Shown: positions 34,171 to 64,000 of the stretch, piece after piece
Position numbering within the stretch: position 1 is the first letter of the stretch
Layout of the letters: the number at the start of each line of letters is the position of its first letter
Assembly: GCA_963748825.1 (NCBI GenBank)
Contig: CAVVKN010000002.1
Location: 167,366-231,365 of the forward strand
Length of the DNA stretch: 64,000 nt
From: Methanotrichaceae archaeon
GTDB lineage: Archaea; Halobacteriota; Methanosarcinia; Methanotrichales; Methanotrichaceae
Direction of reading: 5' to 3'
Program-made: the position numbers and the translations under genes
Notes under the pieces: generated by a model
Databases searched by the model: none
What the model was told of the DNA's origin: nothing
Seen by the model: the letters and a program-made list of their open reading frames with translations, nothing else

Positions 34171-34950
34171 CTACACGCTGATCCTCTTTAAAACCACCAT
34201 GCATCCTGAGAAGAACACCATCAGGAAAAAAATGATGGCAAATAGAGACCCCCAAGGAACAGGCTGGTCGAGAGCTGCAGCTCGCAGGCAGATGCTGCAG
34301 TGCGTGAGGGGAAGCGCATAAAGGGCCATCTTGAGTCCCCAGGGAACCTGGGCCAGGGAGAAGAAGGTCCCGCCCAGGAAGGTCATGGGCAGGAGGATGA
34401 GGCTGCTGAAGGTGGCCAGATCCTGGTGAGACCTGGCAAGCAGAGCGGCCAGCACTCCCAGAAACGAAAAGACCAGACAGGTTAACAGCAATTCCATTAA
34501 AAAAAATGGACCTACACGAAACCCCGGTGCCAGGAGCAGGGAAGCGGCAATGAAGGCGATGGAGCTGACCAGGCCTCTTACTACCCCGATAAGAGCTTTG
34601 CCGAGGAGCAGTGAGAGCAGGCTGATGGGCGCCATTAGGCACTCATCGAAACTGCGAAAATAGAGCCGGTCCACATTTAACCTCGTTCCAGCTCCATTGA
34701 AGCTGGCAGTCATGGCAGTCAAGGCGATTATGCCCGGCACTACGAACTGCAGATAGCTGGTTCCATTGACGCTCATGCCCCGGCCCAGGCCCCAGCCAAA
34801 GGCCACCAAATAGAGGAGCGGGCTGACGGTGGTGGTGATCAGATAGCGGCCCGACCGGCTTCTTAGTATCAGCAGGTCCGACCAGAGGACGGTATAAGCG
34901 TCCTGGCTATTTATCCAGAACCTTTTGACCAGTGAGTTCGACAAAGACAT
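34171..34950 (-). CDS. ABC-2 type exporter permease
   Basis: YLQFVVPGIIAL, LMAPIS, FLGGTFF, LPLTH motifs. Confidence 0.9.
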   Translation of the reverse strand: MSLSNSLVKRFWINSQDAYTVLWSDLLILRSRSGRYLITTTVSPLLYLVAFGWGLGRGMSVNGTSYLQFVVPGIIALTAMTASFNGAGTRLNVDRLYFRSFDECLMAPISLLSLLLGKALIGVVRGLVSSIAFIAASLLLAPGFRVGPFFLMELLLTCLVFSFLGVLAALLARSHQDLATFSSLILLPMTFLGGTFFSLAQVPWGLKMALYALPLTHCSICLRAAALDQPVPWGSLFAIIFFLMVFFSGCMVVLKRISV

Positions 34951-35782
34951 CCTCCAAATTCGACTCGCGCATGAGGACCTTTTCCTGGCCGGGCAGACTG
35001 CTCACAAATGCCGCTGCCTCTTCCCGGTCAGGGAAAAATCTGTAATCGGTTCCGTTGCCGCATCCCGGGCCGCATCCCTGGATTTCCACAGTGATCATTC
35101 CCAGCCTCTGGCGTAGCTGCAGGGGTGTGCCCAGAGCAATCAAGCGGCCGTGGTGGATTATTCCCACCCGGTCGCAAAGCGCCTCAGCCTCTTCGATGTA
35201 GTGAGTGGTGAGAAAGACGGTAGATCCATCTATATTCATCCTGCGAATGAGGTCCCAGACACGTCTCCTGGCCTGGGCATCCAGTCCCACCGTCGGCTCA
35301 TCCAGGAATAAGAGCCTGGGACGATGAAGCAGGGCTCGAGCGATCATGGTCCTTCTCTTCAGGCCGCCGGAGAGCTTATCGATGAGCTTATCGGCGTGCT
35401 CCGTCATTTCTACGTACTCTAAAAGCTCCTCGATCCTCTCTCTTCTGACCTCCGGTGCTAGGTGATGAAGCCGGGCATGAAACTCCAGGTTCTCTCTCAC
35501 GCTCAGATCTCGATTAAGGCTTATGTGCTGCTGCACAATCCCGAACTGCGACTTGACACTGGAAGGGTCATGAGCCACATCAAAGCCGTTTATAAATACA
35601 TTTCCTGATGTGGGCTTGGTCAGAGTAGTAAGAATGCGAATAGTGGTAGTCTTGCCTGCCCCGTTAGGCCCGAGAAAGCCGAAGAGCTCGCCCTTTTCCA
35701 CTCTTAAGTCCAGGCCGTCCACCACTCTTTTTCCTGCGTACTCACGGGTCAAGCCATCGATCAAGATCATGGGATCGGACAT
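34907..35782 (-). CDS. ABC-2 type exporter ATP-binding protein
   Basis: GPNGAGKT, LSGG, FLDEPT, TTH. Confidence 0.93.
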   Translation of the reverse strand: MSDPMILIDGLTREYAGKRVVDGLDLRVEKGELFGFLGPNGAGKTTTIRILTTLTKPTSGNVFINGFDVAHDPSSVKSQFGIVQQHISLNRDLSVRENLEFHARLHHLAPEVRRERIEELLEYVEMTEHADKLIDKLSGGLKRRTMIARALLHRPRLLFLDEPTVGLDAQARRRVWDLIRRMNIDGSTVFLTTHYIEEAEALCDRVGIIHHGRLIALGTPLQLRQRLGMITVEIQGCGPGCGNGTDYRFFPDREEAAAFVSSLPGQEKVLMRESNLEDVFVELTGQKVLDK

Positions 35783-35838
35783 CTGCAATACTGCCACCTT
35801 AATTGTGATCTGTCTGGAATATCAAGATTGAGTTTGGC

Positions 35839-37905
35839 TCAAGTGTTCTTTTGGAATAGTAGCTGTTGTTCTCGATCCACAATGCTGCAGAGGGCCTCCG
35901 GGCTCAGGCTGGATAGGGGGTAATACTTTCCACCCGCGCTCTCTGCGATCTCCTGGCAGTAGCCTAGCCTCATGTCCATGAAGGAACTCTCAACCACCTC
36001 GGTATCGATGACGATGGTCTGCACGCCGAGCTGTCTGCTCTGCTGTGATATCTCCATCAGCTCGTCCCTGATCTTGCCGCCCATTCCCACATTGGCCCTT
36101 CCATCGGATATGAGGACCATCATCGTTTTCGTCTCTATGTCTTTCTGTAGCTCGCTATGCAAGAGCTGCAGTCCCCTTGAGAGGCCCGCACATAGCGGCG
36201 TCTTACCGCCCGTGGGAAGGGCCTGCAGCCGGCTCAAGGCCAGATCCACGCTGGAGCAGGGAGGGAGGATGATCTCTGCCTCCGTTCCCTTGAAGGCCAC
36301 CATGCCAATTTTGTCTCTCTTCTGATAAGAGTCCATAAGCATGGAGAGAACCGCCCCCTTAGCGCCCTCCATCCTCTGCATGGCCCCCATGGAACCGCTG
36401 GCATCCACCACGAAGAGAACCACTGCACAGGTCTTCCCCACTCGCTCCTTCTCTCGAATATCCTCACCCTTTACAATAATAGCATTGCTGCCGGATCTGA
36501 ACTTCTGGTAAGGTGCTGCTGCTCGAATCGTGGCATCGATGGCAATATCTTTGCCTGTGCGGGGCATCCTCTGTCGCAGGTATCTTCCACGGTTACGCAG
36601 AGCGAGTGTATTCATTCTTCTGCCACTTGTCTTGCGGCGGGCAATTCGATCCCGTTCGCTGGGCACATTTATCCGGCGCACATCTACGGGCGAGCCGACA
36701 TGGAAGACCTGCTCCTCCGGCTTGGCTGCAAGGCTTTGCCCGCAGTCCTGCTGTTCATCGGGCTGCTGGGACTCTTGTTCATCTTTTTTCGGTTGATTTT
36801 GGTCCTGGTGCGGATGCTCATGTTGATGCTCATGTTGCGGTTCCGGCTGCTGTTGCTGCTCCTTTTGTTCTTGCTGATGCTTTTCCAGGGACTCGTCCAG
36901 CTTTTCTTTGTTCAGGGTGGGTGGCTCAAAGGGCCTGCTCCTCATCCGGTGAGCCAAAGCCAGCTGCATGGCCAATTTTACGTCCTCCTGGTTGACTTCT
37001 GTCCGTCCCTCAAAGGCAGCAATGGTTTTGGCCGTTCTGGTGATGACGATCTCGGCCCGGTGCGTCTTGACTCCCAGGTCGATGCAGGTAGATGCAATGG
37101 TTCTCAAGAGATCATCGTGCAGAGTCACATCTCGCAGAATCTTCTTGGCAGCGGAGATCTTGCCCTTCAGCTCCTCTTGCATGGCATGAAAGCGAAAGGC
37201 AAAGACCTCCGGGTCCAGGTCAAAGCTCTCCGCATTCTTGGCGATCAGCATTCTCTGATCCACATCAGCAATACCGGCAACGCTCACTTGCAGCCCGAAC
37301 CGGTCTAATAGCTGAGGTCGGATCTCTCCCTCCTCCGGATTCATCGTGCCCACCAATATGAATTTGGAGGGATGAGCCACGGATACACCCTCGCGTTCAA
37401 CAATATTTACCCCCATGGCAGCGGAGTCGAGGAGGACATCGGCCACATGATCGTCCAGGAGATTGACCTCGTCTATGTAGAGAATGCCTCGATTGGCCGC
37501 CGCCAGAATCCCCGGTTCCAGGGCTTTAATGCCTTCCTTGATGGCCCTCTCCACATTCAAAGAGCCTACTACACGATCCTCCGTGGCCCCCAGTGGCAGA
37601 TCTATCACCGGAGTCTTGCGGCTTGCCTCTTTTATCCGGCCTGTCTCGCTCTTCTCAAAGCAAAGATCGCACATCTCCTCCGGATTGGTGGGATCGCAGT
37701 TGAAGGGGCAGTCTTCCACCACGGCAATGCTCTCCAGCAGATCGGCTAGAGCGCGCACGGCGGTTGACTTGGCAGTGCCTTTGTCGCCCCGGATGAGGAC
37801 GCCGCCTATGCGAGGATTGACGGCATTTAGAATCAGGGCGAACTTCATGTCTTCCTGGCCCACGATGGAAGTGAATGGTATGGTCCTTCTCTTGAGATGG
37901 TGCAT
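35839..37905 (-). CDS. Class I chelatase AAA+ ATPase with vWA domain (ChlI/ChlD-like)
   Basis: [32 protein letters not shown]; Q/H/E-rich linker; MIDAS DASGSM, GKTPL, SDGRAN. Confidence 0.94.
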
Positions 37906-37924: not shown

Positions 37925-37949
37925 GTATCATGAAGATCTCATTTAGTAT
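37925..37949. promoter_or_regulatory. Putative NikR-type operator
   Basis: GTATCA-N13-TAGTAT 20 nt upstream of the chelatase ATPase start. Confidence 0.4.
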
Positions 37950-38271
37950 TATAAAGCTTTTTGTAGTAACACTAAAGAGCTAATTTATCAAAATTTTTCT
38001 AATTCATAAGAAATGATAAATTGATATTATGCCAAAATTAAGATCTCTTATCATTTGCTATTTGGTGAAATAAGTGATTGTAGGCATTCATAAATAGAAT
38101 AACAGATGTGCATCCTCATGCACACCTGTTCTCTTCGCTTGATGGAGTTATGTTACCGAAAAGGTTTCCTCTTGCTTATATATCTATCGGTTAAGTATAA
38201 CTAAACAATCTATTTATGCTACAAATTTAGCATGAAAATATAAAATATGCAGATTTAGATCTTAGATATTC

Positions 38272-38296: not shown

Positions 38297-38345
38297 TAAA
38301 AGCAAATTGACTTCATTTATCTGCGAGTGCAGAAGAGGGATTGAT

Positions 38346-39332
38346 ATGAGACATTTTATAGTCGGGATAGGATCCGCGCTAATTCTGCTTCTGATAATGG
38401 CGAGTGTTTCCTGGGCAGGGACCTGGGACTTCAACCCTGGTCAAGAGGCTGTGAAACATAGGAGCGATGTGACGGGCGATGTACAAGGAGCTGGATATTT
38501 CATGGAGCGCACGAAGGTCAATACTAATAACCTCTCCATGCTGGAGTATTCCCATGGAAGCGGCACCATGGACTTTGCCGATGTACTCTATGATGAGCAA
38601 AAGACTACTCACGCCAGCAGTTACATTTACTGGATAGATTACACCACGGGGCAATGGACGAGAAAATATCCAGGAGCTAGCAGCGCCATAACTTATACCA
38701 GGCAGTACGATAATGTGCAATCTCCTACAAGCTTCGCCTATGGAACAGGCTGGTATGCCTCAAATCCCGTGACCTATAACTCGCTTCTCAAGGACAAGAA
38801 CGAGGCCAAAAGTTACCAGGAATCTGCCTCTATGCATCGACAGGTGGAGTATGCGCGAGCCTTAAAAGGCGATATCGCTATCGATATGAATTGTACAGCG
38901 CCCACAGCCACGGTAAGCGGAAAAGGCTCACTCAGCATGAAGATCGATGATGAAGTCACTCAAGGTACGCTCCATATCGGCGAGCTTCTATCCATGCCCA
39001 TGACCAATGCCAAGACACCAAAATTCAAGACAATGCAAGGCTGGAAGGACCCAATAATTGAGATCGACAACAACTACATAGGAGATTTCCAAGTTCAGAA
39101 GACCATGAAGCTCGAAATATCGAAGTCTGCGCCCAGCTGGATGGAGGACTGGTTGCCCTGTTGCAGTGGCGGCTTCTTCGACATTCCTTCCAATAACTTC
39201 GACAAAGAGCGCGGCAGCCAGAAGGGCATATTCGACTGTACCTGCCGGAATACTTCCATCTCCACCATGCAGCCCAAGTGGAACACCACCATGGCGCAGT
39301 TCCCCACTGAGAAGTACAGATACGTGCCGTGA
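38346..39332 (+). CDS. Secreted protein of unknown function with WLPCC...FDCTC motif
   Basis: Signal peptide; paralog of 42709-43692. Confidence 0.85.
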   Translation: MRHFIVGIGSALILLLIMASVSWAGTWDFNPGQEAVKHRSDVTGDVQGAGYFMERTKVNTNNLSMLEYSHGSGTMDFADVLYDEQKTTHASSYIYWIDYTTGQWTRKYPGASSAITYTRQYDNVQSPTSFAYGTGWYASNPVTYNSLLKDKNEAKSYQESASMHRQVEYARALKGDIAIDMNCTAPTATVSGKGSLSMKIDDEVTQGTLHIGELLSMPMTNAKTPKFKTMQGWKDPIIEIDNNYIGDFQVQKTMKLEISKSAPSWMEDWLPCCSGGFFDIPSNNFDKERGSQKGIFDCTCRNTSISTMQPKWNTTMAQFPTEKYRYVP

Positions 39333-40988: not shown

Positions 40989-41411
40989 CTAGAGCTCTTT
41001 GCCAAGCGATGTTGTAGTCAATTTGACATGCTTCACACCCTTCAGGGACATCATCTTCTCAGCCGCTTTTCTCACATCCTGCCCCTCGCCCCTCAGCACT
41101 ACGACCTCCAGACAATTGTCGTGATCCAAATGGACGTGCAGACTGGACTGAATTAAGCCGCCAAATTCATGCTGAATCTCAGTGAGATTATCTTCCAGGC
41201 CCCTTTGAGAATGGGAGTAAACAATGGTAATCACGCCAACGCGTTCCCCGTGGACGTCGCTCATCCATTCGAAGTTGACTATATAGCTTCTAATGGCATC
41301 CCTGACCCCCTCGGAGCGAGAAGAATAGCCTCGCTGAAGAATTATCTCGTCAAACTTATTAAGCAGATTTTCCGGCAGGGAAATGCCTACTCTCATTAAT
41401 TCTTGGTCCAT
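40989..41411 (-). CDS. nikR: Nickel-responsive regulator NikR
   Basis: RHH RVGISLP..GYSSRSE; Ni site QH...[12 protein letters not shown]. Confidence 0.96.
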
Positions 41412-41707
41412 ATGTTATCGTGTAATATAGTTAAATGTTACTTAGTAATAAGCTTATTGGATGCATCAGCAGAAAGACTGATTACATAGGCAAAGCATGA
41501 CCATCTTTCTTGGAGTTGATTTATCAATGCAAAACGTCATTAATGCATCGTTATTTCGCGTCGTTAATTGCCCCCATGTCAATTACGAGTATTACTATAA
41601 AAATTAAAATTACGTATTTATTTTATGATTAAATCATATGAAAATAAAAAAGCTACAAATTTAATATAACAATTAGCGCTAATAGTAGCAAAAAAGGTAG
41701 GTGCATT

Positions 41708-42594
41708 ATGAGACGTGGTTTATATCAGTTCATATCTGCGCTGCTCCTTTCCATACTGATTTTAGGCATATCGGGCCAGGGTGGGGAGGATTCCAGCGGG
41801 AAGATTCTAAAGATCGGCACGCCCAATGTGGTGAAGTCTGCCAGCATTCTGGGAGACACTATGAGGTCTCAGAAGATGGGAAGGTCTGGAAGTTCACCAT
41901 CAATGACGACCTGTACTGGAGCGACGGCCCAAAGCTGACGCCGAATGATGTGCGGTTTACCTTTAGCTATCTAGCAGAAAATTACCCAGCGGCAGGCTGG
42001 ATGAAGAAGACTGTGGACAATATTTCTGTGGAAGACGGCGCGGTGGTCTTCAAGCTGAATAAGCCCTACTCCCGGCTTAACCTGGAGAGGCCCTCCTCGG
42101 GGCGGGTTTTCTTTGCGGGAGAGGATATCTGGCGTTTGCGAGGCAGGGAGTTTTTGGCTTTCAGAAGGCGAGTGCAGATGGTCTTCCAGGATCCTGAGGG
42201 CTCTTTGAATCCCAGGAAAAGCATTGAACGGTCTATTCATGAGGTTTTGGGCCTGCTGAAAATTCCCCAAAGAGAATGGCTGAAGAGGACAGGGGAGATT
42301 TTAGAGATGGTAGGCCTGTCCGAGGAGCTGCTCTGCCGCTATCCTGCCCAGATATCGGGAGGGCAATGCCAGAGAGTGGCACTGGGCAGAGTCTTGCTCC
42401 TCCACCCTAGGGTTATAATCCTGGATGAGCCCACCTCCGCCCTGGATATCTCGGTGCAGGCTCAGATCCTGAATCTCCTCAAGGATCTGCAGAAAGATAT
42501 GGGTCTGGCCTATCTGCTTATCTCTCATCAGCCTGAGGTGATCAGGTTCATGGCTCATGAAACGATCGTTCTTGAGAGTGGAGGGATCTCTTGA
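41708..42594 (+). pseudogene. Deletion chimera of a Nik/Opp-type ABC operon: binding-protein 5' part fused to ATPase 3' part
   Basis: Signal peptide ORF at 41708, frameshift to family-5 SBP motif SEDGKVWKF..WSDG..LT..DVRFT, fused at NLE/RPSSG to QMVFQDP..ISGGQ..LDEPT; no Walker A, no permeases. Confidence 0.85.
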
Positions 42595-42708: not shown

Positions 42709-43692
42709 CTATCCGGGAAATTGCGCCTTGGCTGGTACCGTGAAGCAAGTGCAATCGAAGATGCCCCTGGCGGACTTAAAGGCCTTTGCATCAGCATAAT
42801 TCAGGTCGCTAAATCCGCCAGAGCAACAGGGCAGCCATGAATCTTCTTTCTCCTCCTCCTCTGAGTAGGTGTAAAGATTCATATTTTTCTTAATGTGGAA
42901 GTTCCCCACGTAATCCTCATCCAGCTCTATCAAAGGCTTTTTCCAGGCTTTCATTGCCAGGCCGAGGACTTGAACCTCCTCCGAGTCTTCTTCCGGCTCT
43001 TCATCTACAGGGATTCCCTGAAGCTGAAGCACTCCAAAGTGTGCCCGACCATCAACCAAGTCCTCTTCTATGTTCATTGTGTTATTTGTTGCATCTGATT
43101 GAGCATCAAGCACCTTATTCAATCCATGAGCATGATCAACCATGTGATGCAAGGAATTCAAACCATCGCGGTTCTTTATCCAATCTTCTTCTTTCAGCAG
43201 GGAATTGAAAGCGATTGGATGCAGATCGTAATATCGTGATCCTATACCCATTACCAATGGGCTGTAAGTCATCTTGCTGTCTTCTTTCATCTGAATAGAG
43301 CTTGTTGCTTCTTCTTCATCCTCTATTTCCTCTCCATCTTCATCGTAAGCGCCGTTGATCCAGGTTTTATTGGAGTATGAACTTTCTGCATATATATTTG
43401 AATCAGTATCTATTTTTCCGCTGCCGTGAGCTTTGTTCTTCGCCTCAACTCCGTTGAACAGGTGTCCTTCTGTCCCAAGAGCTTCCGGCATTTGGGCATA
43501 TTTATAGGCAGTAAAGAAGCCAGTGCCGCTCACTTTCTGTTCAAAGTTGAATTTTAGATTTTTCTCTTCCAATGTCGTCGGATTGTCATATGCCGTATCA
43601 TTCTCCTGTAATTGCGTCTCCATTTCCTCATTATCGGCTGCGGCCATGCCAATTAGCGCAAAGAGAGCCAGCAATAAAATAATCTCTCTCAG
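42709..43692 (-). CDS. Secreted acidic protein of unknown function with WLPCC...FDCTC motif
   Basis: Paralog of 38346-39332; probable CTG start at 43692 after GAGGAGG giving signal peptide (M)REIILLLALFALIGMAAA. Confidence 0.82.
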   Translation of the reverse strand: MREIILLLALFALIGMAAADNEEMETQLQENDTAYDNPTTLEEKNLKFNFEQKVSGTGFFTAYKYAQMPEALGTEGHLFNGVEAKNKAHGSGKIDTDSNIYAESSYSNKTWINGAYDEDGEEIEDEEEATSSIQMKEDSKMTYSPLVMGIGSRYYDLHPIAFNSLLKEEDWIKNRDGLNSLHHMVDHAHGLNKVLDAQSDATNNTMNIEEDLVDGRAHFGVLQLQGIPVDEEPEEDSEEVQVLGLAMKAWKKPLIELDEDYVGNFHIKKNMNLYTYSEEEEKEDSWLPCCSGGFSDLNYADAKAFKSARGIFDCTCFTVPAKAQFPG

Positions 43693-44136
43693 ATCATTCC
43701 CTCCTCAAATACGATGTCTACGTTAACACGTATTTATCATATTATTTTAAGATATCTGCTAATAATTGTATAATGTAGCATGATAGCATAACTATCGGTT
43801 TTGTGTATTAATAGAAGATACAAAAATCGCATAAACTATTGAAAAGTCATATGTTGATCCGGTTGATGATAAATCGTGCATATATGCGCTGCATGCGCCA
43901 AAGATTTCCGTGGTGCTCGCGCACTATACCTCAGCACGAGATTCTACTCTGGCCCATGATTTGCTCGCATGCTAAGTGTGCTAGATGAGACGCACTTCAA
44001 GAATTTGGACTTGCCAAGATAGTCTTACCATAATTTGCTTACTCGGTATGCGCATAAAAATCAAGGATAATTGTTACTTAATATGATCCAAGATAGTCTT
44101 TTATAATTGAAAGGCATTTTGGTCAACGGTGAGACT

Positions 44137-44856
44137 ATGCATATTCCTGATGGCTATCTAGGGCCATACACTTATATCGCAATGTGGATCATAATGATCC
44201 CCATCTGGTATTATGCGGGAAGGAAGCTCAGCTCTGAGCTGAAGTCGAGGCAGGTTCCCCTGCTGGCGCTGGCAGCAGCGTTCTCTTTTGTCATCATGAT
44301 GTTCAATGTGCCAATTCCTGGAGGCAGCACCGGCCATGCCGTGGGCGCTGCAATAATTGGCATCGTCCTCGGTCCTTGGGCCGCTGTGATTGCCATATCC
44401 GTTGCCCTCGTGTTGCAGGCGCTGATGTTCGGCGACGGAGGCATCACGGCTATCGCAGCCAATTGCTTTAATATGGGTGTAGTGATGCCCTTTGTTGCCT
44501 ATTATGCGTATAAGCTCATCAGTGGAGGCACAGAAATTACTTCTTCGAGGAGGGTCATTGCTGCGGCCATCGCCGGCTACATCTCTCTCGTGATAGCATC
44601 TGCCTTTACAGGATTTGAATTCGGTATTCAGCCTATATTGCATCACACAGCTGAAGGAGTACCACTCTACATGCCCTACCCACTGAGTGTGACGGTTCCT
44701 GCCATGGTACTGGAGCATGCTTTCGGATTCGGCATCCTTGAGGCTCTCATTACGGCACTGATCTTTGCCTACATCCAGAGAACGGATACCTCTCTGTTTT
44801 ATGGAGAGAAATCTGCTGCGCAGAAGATGAAAATGAGGAAAGCAACCACATCGTGA
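44137..44856 (+). CDS. nikM: ECF-type Ni/Co transporter substrate component NikM/CbiM
   Basis: N-terminal MHIPDGYL metal-binding motif, GSTGH, QALMFGDGG. Confidence 0.92.
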   Translation: MHIPDGYLGPYTYIAMWIIMIPIWYYAGRKLSSELKSRQVPLLALAAAFSFVIMMFNVPIPGGSTGHAVGAAIIGIVLGPWAAVIAISVALVLQALMFGDGGITAIAANCFNMGVVMPFVAYYAYKLISGGTEITSSRRVIAAAIAGYISLVIASAFTGFEFGIQPILHHTAEGVPLYMPYPLSVTVPAMVLEHAFGFGILEALITALIFAYIQRTDTSLFYGEKSAAQKMKMRKATTS

Positions 44857-44865: not shown

Positions 44866-45180
44866 ATGGATCAGATAATAAGAAACTTTGTCATTGGCCT
44901 GGTAGCGCTGATTATTCTGGCGCCGTTGGGGCTTTTAGCCGTTGGAGAGACCTTTGGCGAGTGGGGACCAGAGGAGGTTAAGGAAAAGCTTGGCTTTGTA
45001 CCACCTGGTTTGGAGCAGCTTTCATCGCTTTGGAGCGCACCCTTGCCTGATTACGCCCTGCCCGGGGGCGGCGATTCGATGACCACAGCAGCGGCTGCTT
45101 ATATCCTATCCGCAGTGATCGGCGTTATTGCCTGCGGTGGCCTGCTTTACTTCGTAGGCAAGAGAGTTGCCAAAGACTAA
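44866..45180 (+). CDS. NikN-like PDGLE-domain accessory membrane protein
   Basis: GEWG, PPGLE, APLPDY motifs; directly after nikM. Confidence 0.88.
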   Translation: MDQIIRNFVIGLVALIILAPLGLLAVGETFGEWGPEEVKEKLGFVPPGLEQLSSLWSAPLPDYALPGGGDSMTTAAAAYILSAVIGVIACGGLLYFVGKRVAKD

Positions 45181-45747
45181 CGGTTTTTTTTTCCAATTTT
45201 TAGCTACAAAACAATTGAGTCAAACGGCAGGGCTTCCTGCCCATTTATATCCAATATTTTTAATCGGGCAAAGATCAAAGGTTGCTACTATCAGGCCAAC
45301 AATCGCAATTCCGGTGTCGTTAGATCCTTTTCTGGTTGCATCCGCTGCAGAATATAGCGATTTATGCTGCATAGACATCCAACCTGGGAAAATTTAAGCA
45401 TTCAGGCGATCTCATGCGCGAGATATGACATCCTTCAAATTGCTGCGCGGCTGATCAAAAAAAAGGATCTATCCCGCCATTAAGCTAGGTTCTTCTCCAC
45501 CACGTTCTGTTCAAAGCCTCTTGGCTATTTAATTATCCTTCCTACTTATTTCGCTTCTTGTAGTACTTTTTATACTAAGAAAATAATTGAGATTAAAGAT
45601 TTATGCATCAATTACGAAATATTGCTACAAATGGGGCATAATTTTTTTAAATAAAGCGGCAGATATGCTGGAAAAAGCCCACAGAAAGAATTTAATAGCA
45701 GATCACTTAACTATATAATAATTACAAAAGAACGGAGGTGAATCTAA

Positions 45748-45864
45748 ATGTGTTGCCACGATGATAATAAGCACGAACACACACACGAGCACCCTGGAGA
45801 GAAGCACGTCCATGAGCACATCCACGATGCAGAGCACAAGCACGGACATAAGTGCTGCCATTAA
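45748..45864 (+). CDS. 38-aa His/Cys-rich putative metal-binding micropeptide
   Basis: MCCHDDNKHEHTHEHPGEKHVHEHIHDAEHKHGHKCCH; GGAGGTGA RBS just upstream; TATATAA near 45712; below the ORF-track cutoff. Confidence 0.85.
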   Translation: MCCHDDNKHEHTHEHPGEKHVHEHIHDAEHKHGHKCCH

Positions 45865-46025
45865 TGCTGAAATAATTTCCTGGAAATTTTGTTTTGAAGA
45901 GGAAACGCTGGCAGTTGATCCTTGGGCGAACAGCTAGGATCAATGCCAGGCTTCATTAATGGCATGGCTAAATCCATCTGGATTTGTCAATAAGCCTCGT
46001 TTTTTTCTTGTTCACCTTCTCCGGC

Positions 46026-46217: not shown

Positions 46218-46263
46218 GATGCACACTCCTGTTATGTTATTAATCTAATATTGATATTACTAA

Positions 46264-46288
46264 GTAATAAACTTATTGATAGTATTGC
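46264..46288. promoter_or_regulatory. Putative NikR-type operator
   Basis: GTAATA-N13-TATTGC over the probable promoter of the PUA gene. Confidence 0.4.
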
Positions 46289-50079: not shown

Positions 50080-50094
50080 TACTAATTGCAATTT

Positions 50095-51803: not shown

Positions 51804-52910
51804 ATGAAGATACAGTCCGTTTCAGCTTTGCTAATTCTACCGTTGCTGGCATTGCTCCTCTGCGGCTTTGCATGGGCGGCAGACTACCCCCTGACCATCA
51901 CCGACACTGCGGGCCGAGAGATCACCTTTACCCAGTCTGTGGAGCGAGTGATCGTTCTCAGCTCGGATGCGGCCGAGGCCGTGGTCATGCTGGGCGCCGC
52001 CGACAAAGTGGTCGGCGTCTCGGATACTGTGCAGAAAAAGGGCTACTACTTCCCCCAGCTCGCGAAGAAGCAGAGCATAGGCAAATGGAATGCACCTGAC
52101 TATGAGATGATAGGAGAGATCGCCAAGGGTGGGGCGGAGAACATTACACCCGACATATTAGTTATCGGATACAGCTATCCAGACAAGCCCTATGGAATAT
52201 TTGGCGTGGAGAAGGGCCTGGCTCCATTTAAGGATATAAGGGCTGTAGCCCTGGAGTTCACCAAGCCCGAGAACATGACGCGAGAGATCGAGACATTGAG
52301 CAAGATCCTCAACAGGGAGGCAGAAGCCCAGGATTACATCAACTGGTACAATGAGAAGAGAGCCTCTGTAGAGCAGGCAGTAGCTGGTCTAAATAAGCCC
52401 AAGGTTTATGCAGAGTGGAGTTCGACTGCAGATCTTTCTACTCTGGGAGCAGGCTCCGGCTTTGATCAGGTCTTAAGCGTGGCCAATGGCTACAACATCG
52501 CCAAGAAGCTGGGCGATGCCTATCCCAAAGTGGGCTGGGAATGGGTTGTCACCCAGAATCCGGAAGTCATACTCAAGAGACAGACCCAGTCCTCAGATCA
52601 GAAACAGATCGGATGGGCAGCAGGGCCCTCTCAGGATACAGTCAAACTGCAGGCTGCACAAAATGAGTTGCTGGCTCGATCAGGGGCAAGCGGCATTTCA
52701 GCCGTCAAGGCAGACAGGGTTTATGTCATGGACTGGGATGTCTTGAACGGCCTGGACCAGGTAGTAGGCATAACTTATCTCGCGAAATTGCTCCATCCTG
52801 AGGTGGATCTTGATCCGGTGAGCGTTCACAAGGAATATCTGCAGCTCCTGGGATTGGAGTACCCAGAAGGACGAACCTTCATCTATCCGGAGCTTGAGAG
52901 TGACGGCTAA
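51804..52910 (+). CDS. BtuF/FecB-type ABC substrate-binding protein
   Basis: Signal peptide, TITDTAGR..VERVIVL, LGAADKVVGV, EWVVTQNPEVI, AKLLHPE. Confidence 0.92.
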   Translation: MKIQSVSALLILPLLALLLCGFAWAADYPLTITDTAGREITFTQSVERVIVLSSDAAEAVVMLGAADKVVGVSDTVQKKGYYFPQLAKKQSIGKWNAPDYEMIGEIAKGGAENITPDILVIGYSYPDKPYGIFGVEKGLAPFKDIRAVALEFTKPENMTREIETLSKILNREAEAQDYINWYNEKRASVEQAVAGLNKPKVYAEWSSTADLSTLGAGSGFDQVLSVANGYNIAKKLGDAYPKVGWEWVVTQNPEVILKRQTQSSDQKQIGWAAGPSQDTVKLQAAQNELLARSGASGISAVKADRVYVMDWDVLNGLDQVVGITYLAKLLHPEVDLDPVSVHKEYLQLLGLEYPEGRTFIYPELESDG

Positions 52911-52998: not shown

Positions 52999-54126
52999 TT
53001 GGGTTATCTGCCTGGAAAAAACGAAGCTGCTTCACAATCTTGGTGTGCTGAGATGTCCTCAGGAATTACAGCCAAGAATGTCTTGCTGAGGGAGAAGTAC
53101 CAGCGGTTCGTGGGCAAAAAGATGCTCTTCCTCCTCCTCCTCTTGATAGGAATTGTTCTTCTGGCGGGGGTGGCTGCGACTTTGGGTTCAGCCAACATCG
53201 GCGTCCTGGATGTCTATTCTGCCATTTTAGCCAGGTTCTTCCCCGGCAGTTTTAAAACTTCCTGGTTTGCGGACACGATCGTTTGGGGGCTGCGGCTGCA
53301 CCGCATTCTTCTATCCATCGTAGCGGGAATGGGACTCGCTATTGCTGGTGCTGTGATGCAGGGCATCCTCAAGAATCCACTGGCCAGCCCCTTCACCCTG
53401 GGCATCTCCTCCGCGGCCAGCTTTGGAGCCGCTCTGGCCATCGTTTTGGGAGCGGGCTTTGTGGGGGGTGAGTGGCTGATCATCGGCAATGCCTTCGTCT
53501 TCACCCTGCTCGCATCCATGACGGTCTATGGCCTCGCCAAGTACAAGGGCATTACTCCCGAAACCATGATTCTGGCCGGCATCGCCATCATGTACCTTTT
53601 TCAGGCCATGACGTCCCTTCTGCAGTATGTGGGACGTGCAGAGCAGGTGCAAGAGGTGGTCTTCTGGATGATGGGTTCCATGGGCAGGTCATCCTGGGAC
53701 AAGTTCTGGATCGTGGCTGCGGTCATCACCATTTGCTTTCCCTATCTCTTGCTCAAATCCTGGGACATCAATGCCCTGGGTGCAGGGGACGAGACGGCCA
53801 CCAGCCTGGGAGTGAATGTGGAAAAGACACGGGTCATCTGCATGATGGCAGTCTCGCTTATAACGGCAAGCGTCATCTGCTTTACCGGTACCATTGGCTT
53901 CATCGGCCTGGTCTCGCCTCACATCACGCGTATGGTCATAGGCGGAGATCACAGGTTCTTGCTGCCCGCCTCGGCCCTGGTGGGAGGGCTGCTCTTGCTC
54001 GCGGCTGATACCGCTGCGCGAACCATTCTGGCCCCTGTGATCCTTCCCGTAGGGATTATGACCGCCTTCCTGGGAGTGCCGTTCTTCGTCTATCTTTTCA
54101 TGAGGCGGAAGAAGGAATTCTGGTGA
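52999..54126 (+). CDS. BtuC/FecCD-type ABC permease
   Basis: LRLHR, MQGILKNPLASPFTLG, A.SLGVNV, GTIGFIGLVSPH; start may be ATG 53053. Confidence 0.93.
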   Translation: MGYLPGKNEAASQSWCAEMSSGITAKNVLLREKYQRFVGKKMLFLLLLLIGIVLLAGVAATLGSANIGVLDVYSAILARFFPGSFKTSWFADTIVWGLRLHRILLSIVAGMGLAIAGAVMQGILKNPLASPFTLGISSAASFGAALAIVLGAGFVGGEWLIIGNAFVFTLLASMTVYGLAKYKGITPETMILAGIAIMYLFQAMTSLLQYVGRAEQVQEVVFWMMGSMGRSSWDKFWIVAAVITICFPYLLLKSWDINALGAGDETATSLGVNVEKTRVICMMAVSLITASVICFTGTIGFIGLVSPHITRMVIGGDHRFLLPASALVGGLLLLAADTAARTILAPVILPVGIMTAFLGVPFFVYLFMRRKKEFW

Positions 54127-54313
54127 AGAGCAAAACATTTGCAGAAGAGGTGTGCCCCGACCGTAAGCCGCACAATCTCCGGGGCGGCCAAAGGCAGATT
54201 GGCCAGGGCACATCATTCATCCATTTCACTTTGGCAGGTGAGCAAAGCCAAGAGCAGTATGGTAAAGGTGGCCTTTGCCCTACGCACCTACATCCCGAAT
54301 GTTGTCTTACATA

Positions 54314-54338
54314 GTAATAAATTTTTTGCTAATAGTAT
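54314..54338. promoter_or_regulatory. Putative NikR-type operator
   Basis: GTAATA-N13-TAGTAT in the AT-rich leader of the 54459-59981 gene run. Confidence 0.45.
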
Positions 54339-54899: not shown

Positions 54900-54969
54900 A
54901 GGAGGTTATGAAAGCGATGTCATCTCATTTGCAGCGTCTTTGCTCTTGGCCAGAGAAGGGGAGCTTTTT

Positions 54970-56160
54970 ATGAGGACCAGCGACTCGCTTGCCCTCCTCC
55001 TTCTGTTCATTCTCATTATCCCCTGCCAGGCTCTGCCTACTGTTCCGGGAGATCTGGACGGCGACCTGTTGATATCGGCCGAGGAGGTCAAGAGAGCTGA
55101 GGAGGCCTTTGGCCAGGGTAAGATCACGGAAAAGGATTTGACTGAGATCAAACACATCCATGAAGCATATCCAATTACCGTTACCGATACGAAGGATAGG
55201 ACCGTCACGATTTATCGGCCCATAAAAACGGTGGTATGCACTATCTCTCAGCACCTGGAAACTCTTCGCACCTTGAGGGTGCCTTCCAGCATGGTTGTGG
55301 GTGGGCCTGAGAACATCGACATCTACTCCATTTTTCCTGAGTTCAAGGCTCTGCCAACGGTGGGTAACTTCTATGAGCCCAATGTGGAAAAGATAATTGA
55401 GCTGAATCCTGATTTAGTGCTGGTTCATCCTGGTTCGGGCACGGGAACCTTTGGAGCTTACATCGGTCCGCTCCTGGAAAAGCTGGAAGGGGCAGGAATC
55501 ACAGTGGCCTGCTTCGCCTGTAGCAGGCCGGAGTGCTATGCAGAGGAGGTGCAAAAGCTGGGAATTTTATTCGAGCGAGAGAATGAATCAGAGGAGTTCG
55601 TGCAGTTTTATGACGATGTGCTCGATTCCATACAGGCGAAGATCAAGGACCTTCCGGAGGGTGAGAGGCCCCTGGTTTACAGCGAGAACCGGCCCTATCG
55701 CGCCTCTTATAACGACGTGCCTCCCATCGAAAGCGCAGGAGGGCGAAGCATCTTCGCAGGAAAAGGAGAGGTTGAAGAGGTCAATCCCGAGGATGTAGTA
55801 ACTGCCAATCCCGATGTGATCGTTCGCATCCTGGGCGATGAAGACTACGACAGACGAGCTGCCAGTGATACGGGAAAGCTGGAGGACGTGAGAAGAGAGA
55901 TCATGAGCCGCCCGGAACTCAAGAACACCAACGCTGTGCGGGAAGGCAGGGTGTTTCTCATCGCCTCGCCCCTCTGGACATATATGCCTTTCAGCGGCTG
56001 TCGGCACTTTATTGGAGTTGCCTATCTTGCCAAATGGCTTCATCCGGATCTGTTTTCCGACCTAGATCCCCAGGCCCTCCACCAGAGATATCTGAAGGAG
56101 TTTCAGGGTCTGGATTACGACCTCAAGCAAAGGGGCATTCTTGTCTATCCAGAAGCGTGA
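54970..56160 (+). CDS. BtuF/FecB-type ABC substrate-binding protein with N-terminal dockerin/EF-hand-like loop
   Basis: Signal peptide, PGDLDGDLLISAEE, TVTDTKDR, EKIIELNPDLV, AKWLHPD. Confidence 0.9.
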   Translation: MRTSDSLALLLLFILIIPCQALPTVPGDLDGDLLISAEEVKRAEEAFGQGKITEKDLTEIKHIHEAYPITVTDTKDRTVTIYRPIKTVVCTISQHLETLRTLRVPSSMVVGGPENIDIYSIFPEFKALPTVGNFYEPNVEKIIELNPDLVLVHPGSGTGTFGAYIGPLLEKLEGAGITVACFACSRPECYAEEVQKLGILFERENESEEFVQFYDDVLDSIQAKIKDLPEGERPLVYSENRPYRASYNDVPPIESAGGRSIFAGKGEVEEVNPEDVVTANPDVIVRILGDEDYDRRAASDTGKLEDVRREIMSRPELKNTNAVREGRVFLIASPLWTYMPFSGCRHFIGVAYLAKWLHPDLFSDLDPQALHQRYLKEFQGLDYDLKQRGILVYPEA

Positions 56161-59981: not shown

Positions 59982-60446
59982 CTAAACTACTTAAATTATA
60001 TTTTACATTTTCATAATTTTATTACTAATATTTCACATACATGGCAGCTCAATTGCAGTATTAACAAGGAAATGGATGTGCGCATTCGTTCTACTTTGTT
60101 ATTAAATCGTATTGAAGAATAATTTACCTTTTAATGTTACAAAATTAAGCATAATTCAAATTGAATAAATATTTATAACATGCATGAATTGGTTTGAGGA
60201 TGAAATCACAATAACAGCAATAAAAGAGAATAGGCATTGTTCCTGAAATACATAAGAGATATGGCAATAGAAGCATTTATTAAGCTTGCATTTCTTATTC
60301 ACTAACGTAGTTTGATACTAAGTATTACAATAAAAAGAATACTTATTACTTTATGCATAAATATATAAATTCGATCTTTGAAGATTGATCCAAAGTCAAA
60401 GCAAGATCATTAATCAGAGCCATAGATCGCATCAGGAGGGAGTCAA

Positions 60447-61235
60447 TTGGTAAATATCACCATCAAGGACCTCACATTCAGCTACAACAGTCACAAGATC
60501 CTCGATGATCTCAATCTCGTTATCGAGAACTCAGAGATCTTGAGCCTGGTTGGGCCCAACGGCTCGGGAAAGACCACGCTCATTAAGTGCATCGATCGCA
60601 TCCTCAAGCCCAGGGGCAGCATACTCCTGGATGGCCTGGAACTGGAGAGAATGAGCCGCCAGGAAGTGGCCAGGCAGATAGGCTATGTTCCCCAGTCCAG
60701 CTCCACTCCCCTGTCCACTACGGTCTTTGATACCGTTCTCATGGGCAGAAGGCCGCACATCGGCTGGAGGGTCACAGACTCTGACCTTGATAAGGTGGCT
60801 GAGGTTTTAGAGAGGCTGCACCTGGAAGATCTGGCCATGCGCGACTTTTCTCAGCTTTCCGGAGGCCAGAAGCAGAAGGTGCTCATTGCCCGCGCCCTGG
60901 CCCAGGAGCCAGCCGTGCTTCTGCTGGACGAGCCGACCTCCAACCTGGATATGCTCCATCAACTGGAGGTAATGGAGACCGTAAGCAGACTGGTCAAGGA
61001 AAAGAACATATCTGCGGTCATGGCCATCCATGATCTCAATTTAGCCTCCCGGTTCTCGGACAAACTGGTCATGCTAAAGGAAGGCAAGGTCTATGCAGCA
61101 GGCGAGCCGAAGGCCCTACTCAGCAAGGCCAACATCAGCCGGGTTTACGGCATCGAGGCCATGGTCTTGAACGCTCTGGGCAGGCCCTACATCGTTCCTC
61201 TGCATTCGCTTGGCGGAGGATTGGCATGCGATTAG
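60447..61235 (+). CDS. BtuD/FecE-type ABC ATP-binding protein
   Basis: [28 protein letters not shown]. Confidence 0.94.
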
Positions 61236-64000
61236 CGGCTTTTTGCTGGGCCAGCGATGTAGCTCTGCTTCTGCAGGCGGCCAGGGAGACGAGCATCCAT
61301 CTGCAGGCCTGGGCAATCTCTGAGTTGAATGACGAGAACCTGCAAGTGTGCATCAATTCTCTAAACGCCGCCCAGGCTATCCTCCTGCATCCCTCTCGAC
61401 AGGACCCGTTCTTCGATCGCGTTGTGGAGAGGATCGATCGGAAAATTCCTGTCATCTCCTTCGGCCTTGACCCGTCCATGTGGTCCTTTTCCACCGTCTC
61501 CAGCAAGATCGTCTCTACGGCCAACGCCTATCTTGTCTACGGAGGAGAGGAAAATGCGGCCAATATGATTCGCTACATCGGCCGAGAGGTTCTCGGCCAC
61601 GATTATAGCTACGAGCCACCCCGAGAAAGACTCTGGCAGGGCCTCTACCATCCCGATTCCAGTGAGGCTTTTTCTACTGTAGCTGATTATTTAGAGTGGC
61701 GCGGCAGACGTCATGAGCACTGCGTGGGCATACTCTTCTTTCGCACCTACTGGTCCAATGGCGACCTTTGCATAGTTGACAGCCTCATCCGGGAGCTGGA
61801 AAAGGATGTAGATGTCCTTCCTGCATTTTGCTTTGGCATGGGAGACCGGGACCTGGGTGCCAAATCCAGCGGCGAGGTAGTAGAAGAGTACTTTCTGGGA
61901 AGAGTGGACGGCGTCATCAATTTGCAGTCTATTTTTCATGCGGGAAGTGTAGAGCAGTCCGTCCCAGGTGCTGAAGCGACTAGATCTGCCGGTTTTCCAC
62001 CCCCTCACCGTTTACCACAAGAGCGAAGAAGAGTGGCAAGAGGATGTGCACGGCCTTTCCAGCTCTGAGGTGGGCTGGACGGTGGCCCTGCCCGAGTTTG
62101 AGGGTCTCATTGAGCCCATCTTGGTCGGTGTCTCGGCCAGAGATGAGATTGCTGGAACGGAGTACGAGCGTCACCAGGACGTTATTGATCGCATCCAAAA
62201 GGTCGCACGGCGTGTCAATAGGTGGATAGCTCTGAAAAATAAACCGCCCTCCCAGAGGAAGGTGGCCTTCATTCTGCACAACAATCCCTGTGCCTCGGCG
62301 GAGGCCACCGTGGGCTCGGGCGCTCATCTGGACACATTGGAGAGCGTGGCTCGCATCCTGGCCAGCATGAAAGAGGCAGGCTACAGCATTGAAAAGCCTC
62401 CCGAGAGCGGAAAAGAGCTGATTTCCACCATCATGGAGAGAAAAGCCATCTCTGAGTTTCGCTGGACGGCTGTGGAGGAGATCATAAACAAGGGCGGAGC
62501 TCTGGCCATGGTGGAGAAAGAAGACTACCTGGCCTGGTTTATCACATTGCCCAAGGACGCCCAAAAGAAGGTCTGCGACGCATGGGGGCAGCCGCCTGGA
62601 GAGGAAAAGGATGGCGTGCCTCCGGCAATGGTCTTTGAGGGCAAGATGGTGATAACCGGAGTTGCCTATGGAAATGCCATCGTCTGCGTCCAGCCCAAGA
62701 GAGGCTGCGCCGGTGCGCGCTGCGACGGGCAGGTCTGCCGCATTCTGCATGACCCACAGGTCCCTCCGCCCCATCAGTATCTTGCCACCTATCACTGGAT
62801 AGAGGAGAGCTTTGGGGCAGATGTCATGATCCATGTGGGAACGCATGGAAATATGGAATTTCTGCCCGGCAAGTCCGTGGCGCTTTCGGCAGGCTGCTTT
62901 CCCGATATAGCCGTGGGAGATGTTCCTTATCTTTACATCTACAACTCCGATAATCCGCCTGAGGGAGCTATAGCCAAGAGGAGAAGCTACGCGGTGATTG
63001 TGGATCACATGCAAACGACCATGACCGCCTCGGAGATCTACGGGGACCTGAAAGAGCTGGAGGATGCCATCGCCTCCTATAAGCAGAGCAAAATCTCGGA
63101 GAGGGGCCGGGCGCACGCTTTAGAGCATGTTATCATCGATCTGCTCAAGAAGACCAATTTAGCGGAGGAATTGAAGCTGGACGCACTCATGCAGTCCGGC
63201 GTATCCTTCGAGAGTATCTTGGAAAAGGCGCACGACAAGATCTCGGAGATCTACACTACGCAAATTCCGGACGGCATGCATATCTTCGGCCAGGTACCAG
63301 AAGGAGAGAAGCGCATCGATCTGATCTATGCCATCCTGCGCTTCGATTCGGAGATGAAAAAATTCCTCTCCGGGCTTATGGACCGGCCTGTTGCAGAAAA
63401 GGAGCAAGAGGCTTTAGCCAGACAGTTCATCAGCGCATTTCTGGCAGGGGATACGGACCCATCGGCACGCATCCTGGGTGATCTTCTCAAGAACCGGGAC
63501 TCTGAGGCCATCTCCCTCTTGCAGGAAAAGGTCCTGGATCTCTCCCGAAGAATTGAGGCCTCGCAGGAGATGAAGAGCCTGCTGCACGGCATGGAGGGCG
63601 GTTTCATCGAGCCGGGCCCTTCCGGCCTGATCACGCGAGGAAAGCCGGATGTGCTGCCCACGGGCAGAAACTTTTACACTCTGGACCCGGCCACTGTGCC
63701 GAGCATTGCCGCCTGGCGCGTGGGCAGGAAGCTCGCCCACCTTCTCATCACCAAGTACCAGGAAGAGAAGGGCAGGATTCCCGAGAACGTGGCCATGTAC
63801 TGGATGGCCAGCGATATTATGTGGGCTGAAGGAGAGCAGTTTGCCCAGATGCTCTTTCTCCTGGGAGTGGAGCCGGTCTGGAAGGGCGGGCGCGTGACAG
63901 GCTACAAAGTGTTGAGCCTGGCGGAGCTTGGCCGGCCCAGAATTGATGTCACGGTGCGAGTTAGCGGCATCACCAGAGATTGCTTTTATAACTGCATTGA
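61226..64000 (+). CDS. cobN: Second CobN family chelatase subunit, 1-nt frameshift near 61964, runs off the window end
   Basis: Removing one C from CCC 61963-61965 joins the 61226 ORF to a frame reading LPEFEG.IEP, HVGTHGNMEFLPGK, DGMHIFG, LPTGRNFY, RPRIDV up to 64000. Confidence 0.9.

Follow-up and report, generated by a model that had tools for sequence, protein, structure and literature searches.

We analysed a cluster of transport and chelatase genes on the final 64 kb of contig C2 of a Methanotrichaceae archaeon (assembly GCA_963748825.1; 2.88 Mb, 25 contigs, 94.9% complete). This whole stretch of 64,000 nucleotides is called the window here. The mcrBDGA genes end 0.4 kb ahead of it, and the host is a methanogen. 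Between 34 and 64 kb, a region called the island below, the window encodes two large subunits of class I chelatases (CobN1 and CobN2), a ChlI-ChlD fusion protein (ChlID), an importer with two substrate-binding proteins (SBP1 and SBP2) and an exporter of the ATP-binding cassette (ABC) type, together with the nickel regulator NikR and further metal transport genes (Table 1). Pfam and NCBIfam scans of the 25 open reading frames (ORFs) in this region confirmed each gene named in a first-pass annotation of the same DNA. That annotation had also reported the absence of ring-biosynthesis genes, and no cob, cbi or cfb family match was found among the window ORFs of at least 80 aa. Its description is corrected here in that CobN2 is split and runs off the contig end, part of the island consists of relics, and a third CobN lies outside the window.

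Table 1. Features of the island and the CobN3 gene. Positions are those of the window unless a locus or contig is named; box scores are from the position weight matrix (PWM) described in the text.
Feature	Position	Strand	Evidence or remark
ABC-2 type permease	34171-34950	-	PF01061 78 bits; last gene of the chlID-ABC operon
ABC ATPase (DrrA/NodI-like)	34907-35797	-	PF00005 116 bits; pairs with ABC-2 permease
ChlI-ChlD fusion (AAA+ and VWA), 688 aa	35839-37905	-	TIGR02442 795 bits (cut-off 779)
Weak inverted repeat GTATTAT-N13-GTAACAC	37946-37972		Match to delta-proteobacterial NikR consensus; overlaps chlID TATA box
NikR1, ribbon-helix-helix nickel regulator	40989-41411	-	NikR_C 117 bits, RHH_1 34 bits
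nikR-promoter box GCTTATTACTAAGTAACA	41436-41453	-	PWM 29.9; ~40 nt before nikR ATG
NikABCDE-type transporter relic, single ORF	41701-42594	+	SBP_bac_5 fragment and C-terminal part of NikE-like ATPase
nikM (S component, energy-coupling factor type)	44107-44856	+	CbiM 202 bits
nikN (S component, energy-coupling factor type)	44866-45180	+	PDGLE 43 bits
Decayed stretch, ABC ATPase fragment and PUA relic	45181-47597		No other ORF with a family match
PUA relic, 66 aa	46026-46226	-	
Palindromic box	46255-46272	-	PWM 24.2; 44 nt before PUA relic ORF
FmdE-domain gene	47598-48047	+	Pfam
Znu-like ATPase	48065-48811	+	Pfam
ABC-3 permease	48727-49626	+	Pfam
ZnuA	50086-50976	+	Pfam
Box GTTTATTACTAAATAATA	51108-51125	+	PWM 28.7; 43 nt before receiver-domain gene heading SBP1-FecCD
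Stand-alone response-regulator receiver domain (REC)	51153-51563	+	PF00072 81 bits
SBP1 (Peripla_BP_2, signal peptide)	51789-52910	+	Pfam
FecCD permease	52999-54126	+	PF01032 304 bits
Box ATTTATTACTATGTAAGA	54305-54322	-	PWM 21.5; FecCD-unk161 gap
unk161, secreted protein without family, 161 aa	from 54414	+	Pfam/NCBIfam scans
SBP2 (Peripla_BP_2)	54940-56160	+	Pfam
CobN1, ChlH-like class I chelatase large subunit, 1260 aa	56199-59981	+	PF02514 1133 bits
Box GTTTGATACTAAGTATTA	60310-60327	+	PWM 19.6; 137 nt before fecE (fecE-CobN2)
FecE/BtuD-type ABC ATPase	60447-61235	+	PF00005 118 bits
CobN2, CobN-like large subunit	61226-64000, off contig end	+	Pfam; C-terminus on contig C23
CobN3, 1848 aa	L002:9319-14865 (= G000:C2:136684-142230)	-	~25 kb upstream of window

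The import, chelatase and export genes constitute a real module that is widespread in methane- and alkane-cycling archaea. The first-pass annotation had grouped the chelatases, ChlI/D, the FecBCD-type importer and the ABC-2 exporter, and the comparison of gene order across relatives that it called for bears this grouping out. A complete genome of the same genus (G005) carries the genes at two loci. In one of these (G005a), genes for FecCD, FecE, ChlID, the ABC ATPase and the ABC-2 permease follow one another without gaps, preceded by two CobN, four SBP, CbiZ and CbiC genes; the FecE of the island is 76% identical to the product of the gene directly ahead of chlID there. In the other (G005b), SBP1 (68% identity) and CobN2 (62%) are followed ~11 kb on by ABC-2, ABC and ChlID genes divergent from FecCD (83%). 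The window thus resembles G005b, with ~13 kb (nikR, nik relics, nikMN and znu) between chlID and the transporter. Orthologues of the ABC-2 permease come after ChlID in G005a, G005b and a further locus (L043).

A scan of one genome per species yielded 68 loci with CobN2-type genes (54-99% identity, many ending at contig ends), labelled Methanothrix, anaerobic methanotrophic archaea (ANME-1, ANME-2 and ANME-3), Argoarchaeum, Methanocellales and, once, Nitrosotalea. SBP genes were present at 36 of them, FecCD/FecE at 27, ChlID at 26 (directly adjacent and on the same strand at 16) and ABC-2 genes at 17; the corresponding counts were 3 for Znu, 2 for NikM, 1 each for NikR and CobN1, and 0 for CbiZ. 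An ANME-1 locus (L078) carries on one strand the order SBP-SBP-CobN1-CobN2-ChlID-FecCD-FecE-ABC ATPase-ABC-2 permease. All nine module genes thus run in one direction there, and the link between the importer, both large subunits, the motor and the exporter is conserved across orders.

To assess the distribution of the CobN2 type, 300 genomes sampled evenly from the phylum (at least 80% complete) were searched with the C-terminal 297 aa of CobN2. Matches of at least 57% identity were found in at least 65 genomes, and McrA, the marker of methyl-coenzyme M reductase (MCR) searched in the same draw and compared by hand, was found in 53 of these 65. Eight of the 12 CobN2-type genomes without McrA are metagenome-assembled genomes of a family with McrA in 25 of 42 members, and two are single genomes from other MCR-bearing families. 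Many MCR-bearing lineages lack the CobN2 type (one family 0/13; several genera with matches of at most 42% identity only), and it is therefore no core biosynthetic step. The CobN2 subfamily occurs almost wholly in MCR-bearing lineages. This is a correlation and no proof of a link to coenzyme F430: related genomes do not count as independent samples, and identity above the cut-off stands in for the cysteine motif described below.

The three CobN-family proteins were assigned to subfamilies by phmmer scores to solved chains. CobN1 spans positions 2-1089 of the 1090 in PF02514, exceeds the cut-off of TIGR02025 BchH (926 bits against 829) and scores highest with ChlH (4zhj, 603 bits; M. tuberculosis CobN, 421; HmuS, 377). 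CobN2, represented by its intact G005 orthologue, is nearest to CobN (7c6o, 605 bits; ChlH, 491; HmuS, 345). CobN3 is nearest to HmuS (539 bits; CobN, 490; ChlH, 467). No hydrophobic N-terminus or signal peptide was seen by eye in CobN1 and CobN2, which are read as cytoplasmic. In CobN3, the same inspection showed a signal peptide and, at the C-terminus, a hydrophobic helix. This protein also contains a PQQ-type beta-propeller in its N-terminal part, and relatives carry long CobN3-like forms of 1440-2080 aa. Its neighbours (L002:15541-19632) encode an unknown 328-aa secreted protein, a Peripla_BP_2 protein and DUF2162, MotA-ExbB and DUF2149 proteins. CobN3 and its neighbours could thus form an archaeal equivalent, exposed at the cell surface, of the Hmu system of Bacteroidota.

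CobN2 occupies two frames, with one extra base near 61963; a 332-nt contig from a related population (~94% identical, 19 other letters different) lacks one base at this site, which is covered by one of four runs. The last ~300 aa are encoded at the end of contig C23, where the cluster ends, as unrelated genes (a PLD-like protein and a thermosome) come after CobN2. Together the pieces cover PF02514 positions 2-148, 159-825 and 836-1088. In one archaeal family of the draw (f7), a group of ~495-aa ORFs shows 46-51% identity to CobN2 that is confined to the C-terminal third, and few of the genomes that encode them have McrA. These ORFs are stand-alone C-terminal CobN domains, and the solved 384-aa 'Cobn protein' 9fpc may be alike.

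The H-x-G-x-H-G loop, the equivalent of HmuS His-538, is conserved as HVGTHG in CobN1 and CobN2 and as HLGKHG in CobN3. The catalytic partner His-1209 of HmuS (with Glu-1212) lies within LSLDHxxEFMGG, which has been called specific to the HmuS family (PMC12583661). In the corresponding column, which was derived from MAFFT and phmmer alignments to CobN and ChlH and not from direct alignment to HmuS, CobN1 has IDLDHYYEFFGG, CobN2 LLGCCCYFGTYGG and CobN3 IDNDDVFQYLGG: CobN1 keeps the motif (LDHYYEFFGG), but CobN2 (GCCCYFG) and CobN3 (NDDVFQYLGG) do not. The GCCCYFG of CobN2, located on the C23 piece, aligns to DSDDYF of M. tuberculosis CobN and DVSHYF of ChlH, in the same column as the catalytic His of ChlH and HmuS. 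Of 67 CobN2-type matches, 64 have CCC and 3 have CCY at this site. The commonest triplet among 146 aligned representatives of the wider family is SDD (43), followed by CCC (18), and other Cys-bearing triplets concentrate among the closer relatives.

ChlID is the single match of its kind in the genome, and there is no separate ChlI. The Walker A and B motifs of its AAA+ part and the MIDAS motif DASGS of its VWA part are intact, and the two parts are joined by a linker rich in His, Gln and Glu (residues 345-385; window positions 36750-36900). Acidic linkers with HEH-type repeats were also found in the ChlID partners of CobN2, with at least two His in 27 of 28, and a G005a ChlID paralogue located by CbiZ and another type of CobN has no linker His. 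We infer from these motifs that the Cys triplet and the His-rich linkers would suit a soft metal such as nickel or cobalt. CobN1 and CobN2 resemble ATP-dependent chelatases, and metal insertion dependent on ATP and ChlI/D is predicted from their genetic linkage to ChlID. The exporter ATPase encoded behind chlID reaches 304 bits with TIGR01188, slightly below the cut-off of 312.

The importer is a complete system of the type II BtuFCD/FecBCD kind, with binding proteins (PF01497, 79 and 81 bits), the FecCD permease and the FecE ATPase. The top NCBIfam match is BtuC for FecCD and a corrinoid ABC ATPase for FecE, all equivalogs being below their cut-offs. The order FmdE-ZnuCBA-REC-SBP1 recurs at two other loci (L048 and L057). 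The island also contains two members of a family of secreted proteins, at 38307-39332 (+) and 42709-43674 (-), and a third paralogue lies beside CobN3 (L002:15541-16527, -). The family had no Pfam or NCBIfam match and no usable match in the Atlas, its AlphaFold model has a mean confidence (pLDDT) of 31.7 from an 8-row alignment, and its members share two invariant motifs towards the C-terminus, PCC-GGF and IFDC-C. Other Methanothrix loci (L051-L053, L072 and G005b) also have members of the family next to SBP-FecCD-FecE-CobN2 clusters.

The island shares a promoter element with nikR. A conserved block is found ~40 nt before the nikR start codon in 22 of 22 upstream regions of the genus, for both nikR paralogues, and reads (G/A)(C/T)TTATTACTAA(G/A)TA(A/G)CA with the palindromic core TATTACTnAGTAATA. 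Both strands of the genome were scanned with a PWM built from the 16 unique nikR-promoter sites. The two nikR promoters rank first (29.9 and 29.7), and the top match beyond the training sites in 2.88 Mb is the box before the receiver-domain gene (51108), which has an orthologous site in L048. Six matches score 19 or higher, five of them in the island, including all four that do not belong to nikR; the next best match outside the island and the nikR promoters scores 16.4. A reversed PWM gave two matches at this threshold and none in the island, and 20 column-permuted PWMs gave 0-4 each, with an island match in one of the 20. The genome contains the 9-mer TATTACTAA or its complement at 33 sites, six of these within the 30-kb island. 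Above a score of 16, there are 11 matches in 1.07 Mb of relatives' CobN2 loci vs 2 in the remainder of the genome. Several of the 11 have positions equivalent to those in the island: upstream of REC (L048), between SBP1 and FecCD (L048, L049 and L086), upstream of SBP1 (G005b) and upstream of FecE (L077), where the site is near-identical to the box at 54305.

As the box is present in all 22 nikR promoters and recurs four times in the island, co-regulation with nikR is plausible, if unproven. The promoter box being common to both nikR genes, the transport and CobN units are probably switched with nikR, and NikR itself may be the factor that binds the candidate box. The first-pass annotation had called the island NikR-centred. 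With respect to gene order this does not stand, as only one of the 30 relatives and one of the 68 loci have nikR near CobN or ChlID; with respect to regulation within the genus, the shared promoter box plausibly supports it. The relative concerned (G013, ChlID 95% identical) is the only one with nikR within 30 kb of a CobN or ChlID match. Nine other genomes have nikR and CobN on one contig at a distance of at least 160 kb, and in the others they are on separate contigs.

NikR1 is a confident assignment (NF002169, 218 bits; cut-off 111), and its His, His, His and Cys residues, which we take to be the ligands of the high-affinity nickel site, line up with those of P. horikoshii NikR (2bj1). The other nickel genes around it are incomplete. 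The Nik-type ORF aligns to positions 10-86 (of 368) of the SBP_bac_5 profile and to 34-137 of ABC_tran, and reaches 174 bits with NikE against a cut-off of 333. Of a NikMNQO set the window holds only M and N; CbiQ and CbiO do not follow nikMN, and CbiQ was found in the genome on contigs C3 and C22 only. The G+C content of the stretch from 38 to 48 kb, which is partly decayed, is 0.44-0.46 vs 0.52-0.56. Within it, the PUA relic ORF (46026-46272 with its promoter, minus strand) lies behind a perfect 7-1-7 palindrome, TATTACTAAGTAATA, at the same distance of 44 nt as in nikR promoters; this regulated promoter seems to have outlived its gene.

Other candidate NikR sites were considered and rejected. 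The delta-proteobacterial and enterobacterial NikR consensus sequences have 7 and 27 genome matches, respectively, at up to two mismatches, of which only the repeat in the chlID promoter is in the island. Four of the other six delta-type matches are inside ORFs and two are on contig C10 without adjoining nik genes; at up to three mismatches the window matches (37946 and 54386) are at chance level. The chlID-promoter repeat is kept in a 95%-identical strain only and not in other species, and is a weak candidate for a NikR site. Weaker PWM matches on contigs C5, C11, C14, C12 and C24 adjoin unrelated genes. The nikR promoters of other genera reach a PWM maximum of 14.4. One nikR paralogue there (L144) has GTATTAC-N14-GTAACAT, and another locus (L136) has GTGCTAC-N14-GTAACAC directly after nikR, which hints at a delta-type NikR operator in these relatives. 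At a further site in G005 (L129, G005:C1:2883500-2888500), the box occurs with one mismatch 640 nt before a gene of the TspO/MBR family of tetrapyrrole-binding membrane proteins and also near an Opp/Nik-type ABC ATPase.

From gene content, conserved linkage, subfamily assignment, motifs and box clustering, all of which were observed directly, we tentatively favour, at somewhat less than an even chance, a conserved import-chelatase-export module that uses ATP to load a metal onto, or exchange it on, a ring or chelate taken up from outside the cell. SBP1 and SBP2 would capture a chelate-like ligand at the cell surface, in all likelihood either a ring of the tetrapyrrole or corrinoid type or a metal chelate, and FecCD and FecE would import it. 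In the cytoplasm, the ChlH-like CobN1 and the CobN-like CobN2 with its Cys-Cys-Cys site would act on the ligand, both driven by the single ChlI-ChlD fusion, which would spend ATP on loading or exchanging the metal. The ABC-2 pair behind chlID may export the product or a by-product. Nickel seems slightly favoured over cobalt as the metal, and insertion over removal as the direction; the class of ligand and the cargo of the exporter are likewise suggested here. A more specific version, which we consider unlikely, is that CobN2 and the His-rich ChlI/D form an ATP-driven nickel chelatase or exchange enzyme of MCR-bearing archaea, switched with nikR, whose imported substrates would be F430-type or other corphinoids, with nickel or without a metal, and which would provide a salvage route for F430 or nickel alongside CfbA. 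The magnesium (ChlHID) and cobalt (CobNST) chelatases likewise combine a large subunit with an AAA+/VWA motor, and CobN1 and ChlID pass the BchH and TIGR02442 cut-offs. In contrast to those systems, the island has no chlorophyll pathway or aerobic cob context and a single ChlI-ChlD fusion, its genes are embedded among ABC import and export genes, and the active-site column of CobN2 is Cys-rich.

Several observations weigh against this interpretation. SBP1 and SBP2 match solved binding proteins weakly, and the best matches are labelled 'iron/siderophore' (E 1e-19 and 1e-17). Two CobN2-type genomes without McrA (G081 and G065) belong to an MCR-less family (McrA 0/6); they are the sole carriers among 64 genomes of families without a McrA match. 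The adjacency of nikR is lineage-specific, and the module may be decaying in this genome, as CobN2 is frameshifted and the adjoining nik genes are relics. Known NikR operators have half-sites 11-16 nt apart. NikR1 resembles the regulators of known and predicted regulons (E. coli nikABCDE and delta-proteobacterial nikMNQO) in its ribbon-helix-helix and nickel-site residues, and the half-sites TATTAC and GTAACA of the box resemble the predicted delta-proteobacterial GTGTTAC and GTAACAC (predicted spacing N13/14). However, the box is a compact 7-1-7 palindrome with half-sites 1-3 nt apart, vs 13-16 in those regulons, and neither chlID nor any of the three cbiM/nikM loci has an upstream match that reaches a score of 12. 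Outside its two nikR promoters, G005 has eight places that fit the box pattern at up to two mismatches, and only three or four of these adjoin metal-transport genes: three are by ZnuA, SBP or SBP1-CobN2 genes and one is near TspO, and others are inside an S-layer gene, near mcrB and a topoisomerase gene, and before an acetate-permease homologue. At three mismatches the G005 count equals that of the reversed control. Finally, zinc has been suggested as the signal for a NikR homologue of Methanothermobacter whose gene adjoins znuABC (Kaster et al. 2011, PMC3087415).

The first-pass annotation had proposed that a metallated ring (F430, a corrinoid or heme) is imported, its metal stripped or swapped to harvest nickel, and the spent ring exported. 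This is rather unlikely in our view, although dechelatases exist in the CobN family, namely HmuS (PMC12583661) and BtuS1/2 (PMC6460266), and the HmuS/BtuS systems (hmuYRSTUV of Bacteroidota) likewise link a large CobN-family protein to the uptake of metallated tetrapyrroles. Importer and exporter share one module, the box is common to nikR and the island, CobN1 keeps the LDHxxEFxGG motif, and the thiolates and His-rich linkers could accept a released soft metal. However, HmuS is an NADH-dependent heme dechelatase that works without ATP or ChlI/D, has N- and C-terminal anchors and faces the periplasm (PMC12583661), whereas the CobNs of the island are cytoplasmic, tied to ChlID and nearer to ChlH (CobN1) or CobN (CobN2). 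HmuY and HmuR are not in the island, and the Cys triplet of CobN2 replaces the Asp-His of the HmuS motif. The analogy with HmuS is thereby weakened, and dechelation is not favoured in the island, as the paralogue that resembles HmuS, is anchored at the surface and has ExbB-like neighbours is CobN3, which lies beyond the window. Alternatively, a BtuFCD-like transporter could serve corrinoid salvage, with CobN and ChlID as an ATP-dependent cobaltochelatase for incomplete or metal-free corrinoids and the nikR-like box belonging to another regulator. The precedent is operon-2 of Dehalobacter restrictus (also Acetobacterium woodii), with FepBCD/BtuCDE-like (BtuFCD-like) transporters, CbiZ, CobN and Mg-chelatase subunits, which is upregulated 46-fold on corrinoid starvation in an anaerobe that uses the anaerobic B12 route (PMC4285132). 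CbiZ and CbiC likewise occur beside CobN, SBPs and FecCD-FecE-ChlID in G005a, NCBIfam places ChlID in 'putative cobaltochelatase', CobN2 is nearest to the CobN models, the best NCBIfam matches of FecCD and FecE point the same way, and a single CbiX-family gene passes the cut-off in the genome. Against this, operon-2 as described includes CbiZ and lies behind B12 riboswitches (PMC4285132), whereas CbiZ is absent from the window and all 68 CobN2 loci and had no match in the host genome at its level of completeness. Furthermore, the CbiZ-linked CobNs of G005a are of another subfamily (31-35% identical, with an acidic DGDDFYSFHGG), and their ChlID has no linker His. In the anaerobic B12 route, moreover, cobalt is inserted early. 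We consider corrinoid salvage improbable.

More doubtful still is an explanation without salvage, in which CobN and ChlID would be a high-affinity, ATP-driven stand-in for the class II chelatase in the organism's own F430 or B12 synthesis, while the ABC systems would serve to import a metal chelate and reuse its carrier, or would simply be metal-homeostasis genes that happen to be neighbours. The wider region is rich in metal genes, with FeoB, a DtxR-type repressor, ZIP and CDF genes farther upstream of the window in addition to Znu and Nik, and there is one CbiX/CfbA-type gene. FecBCD-type systems usually carry metal chelates, in keeping with the weak 'iron/siderophore' matches of the binding proteins. 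This explanation is opposed by the linkage of importer, chelatase and exporter across orders and by the many MCR-bearing lineages without the CobN2 type; moreover, no metallophore synthesis gene was seen, and nicotianamine synthase (PF03059) had no match in the genome. ATP-driven loading or exchange of metal on an imported ligand stays our preferred reading.

A role in nickel chelation was proposed for CobN-like proteins when the F430 pathway had yet to be discovered (Kaster et al. 2011, PMC3087415). CfbA, a class II enzyme, is the nickel chelatase of this pathway and also inserts cobalt in vitro (PMC8179277). The function of archaeal chlD alongside the anaerobic B12 route has been called unclear (PMC9227772), as has the role of HmuS, CobN and ChlH homologues in Archaea by the authors of the HmuS study (2025, PMC12583661); the first-pass remark that class I chelatases have no obvious biosynthetic job in methanogens agrees with statements in print. 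Its claim of novelty for the salvage function is not upheld, since the SEED annotation 'CobN-like chelatase BtuS for metalloporphyrin salvage' has been applied to two Methanosarcina barkeri proteins, which are upregulated under some Fe/S regimes (PMC10846266). In archaea this is an annotation only, and it comes without the NikR link, subfamily split or exporter. The literature covered on methanogen CobN and nickel chelatases, BtuS, archaeal NikR and Methanothrix cobaltochelatase, which did not extend to the NikR signals of Rodionov 2006, mentioned neither the Cys triplet nor the nine-gene module nor the nikR box.

Elsewhere in the window, a molybdopterin oxidoreductase of the formate-dehydrogenase type (923 aa) and its Fe-S partner are followed by a formate/nitrite transporter ORF (26023-30538), which is possibly truncated, as it covers only profile positions 2-169 of 240. 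A 1524-aa protein combines HEAT/PBS-lyase repeats with PD40 beta-propeller repeats (9974-14548, +). On contig C23 (L001:5765-11736, G000:C23), a four-gene unit of a PIN-domain protein and three small ORFs is tandemly duplicated; the adjoining genes encode a restriction-modification protein of the Eco57I/MmeI type and an AIPR protein.

Homologues of CobN/ChlH and ChlI/D are numerous in methanogens and in methane- and alkane-oxidising archaea, and the identification of CfbA as the nickel chelatase of F430 synthesis left them without an assigned function. Here, one CobN subfamily is locked into a nine-gene module of import, chelatase and export genes across orders. In place of the acidic residues or His of other chelatases, this subfamily has a site rich in thiolates, and the module shares a promoter element with nikR in one genus. 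The locus thus offers clues to the job of class I chelatases in methane-cycling archaea. If salvage of nickel or of a cofactor is indeed its function, this would bear on the trace-metal limitation of methane production and oxidation.

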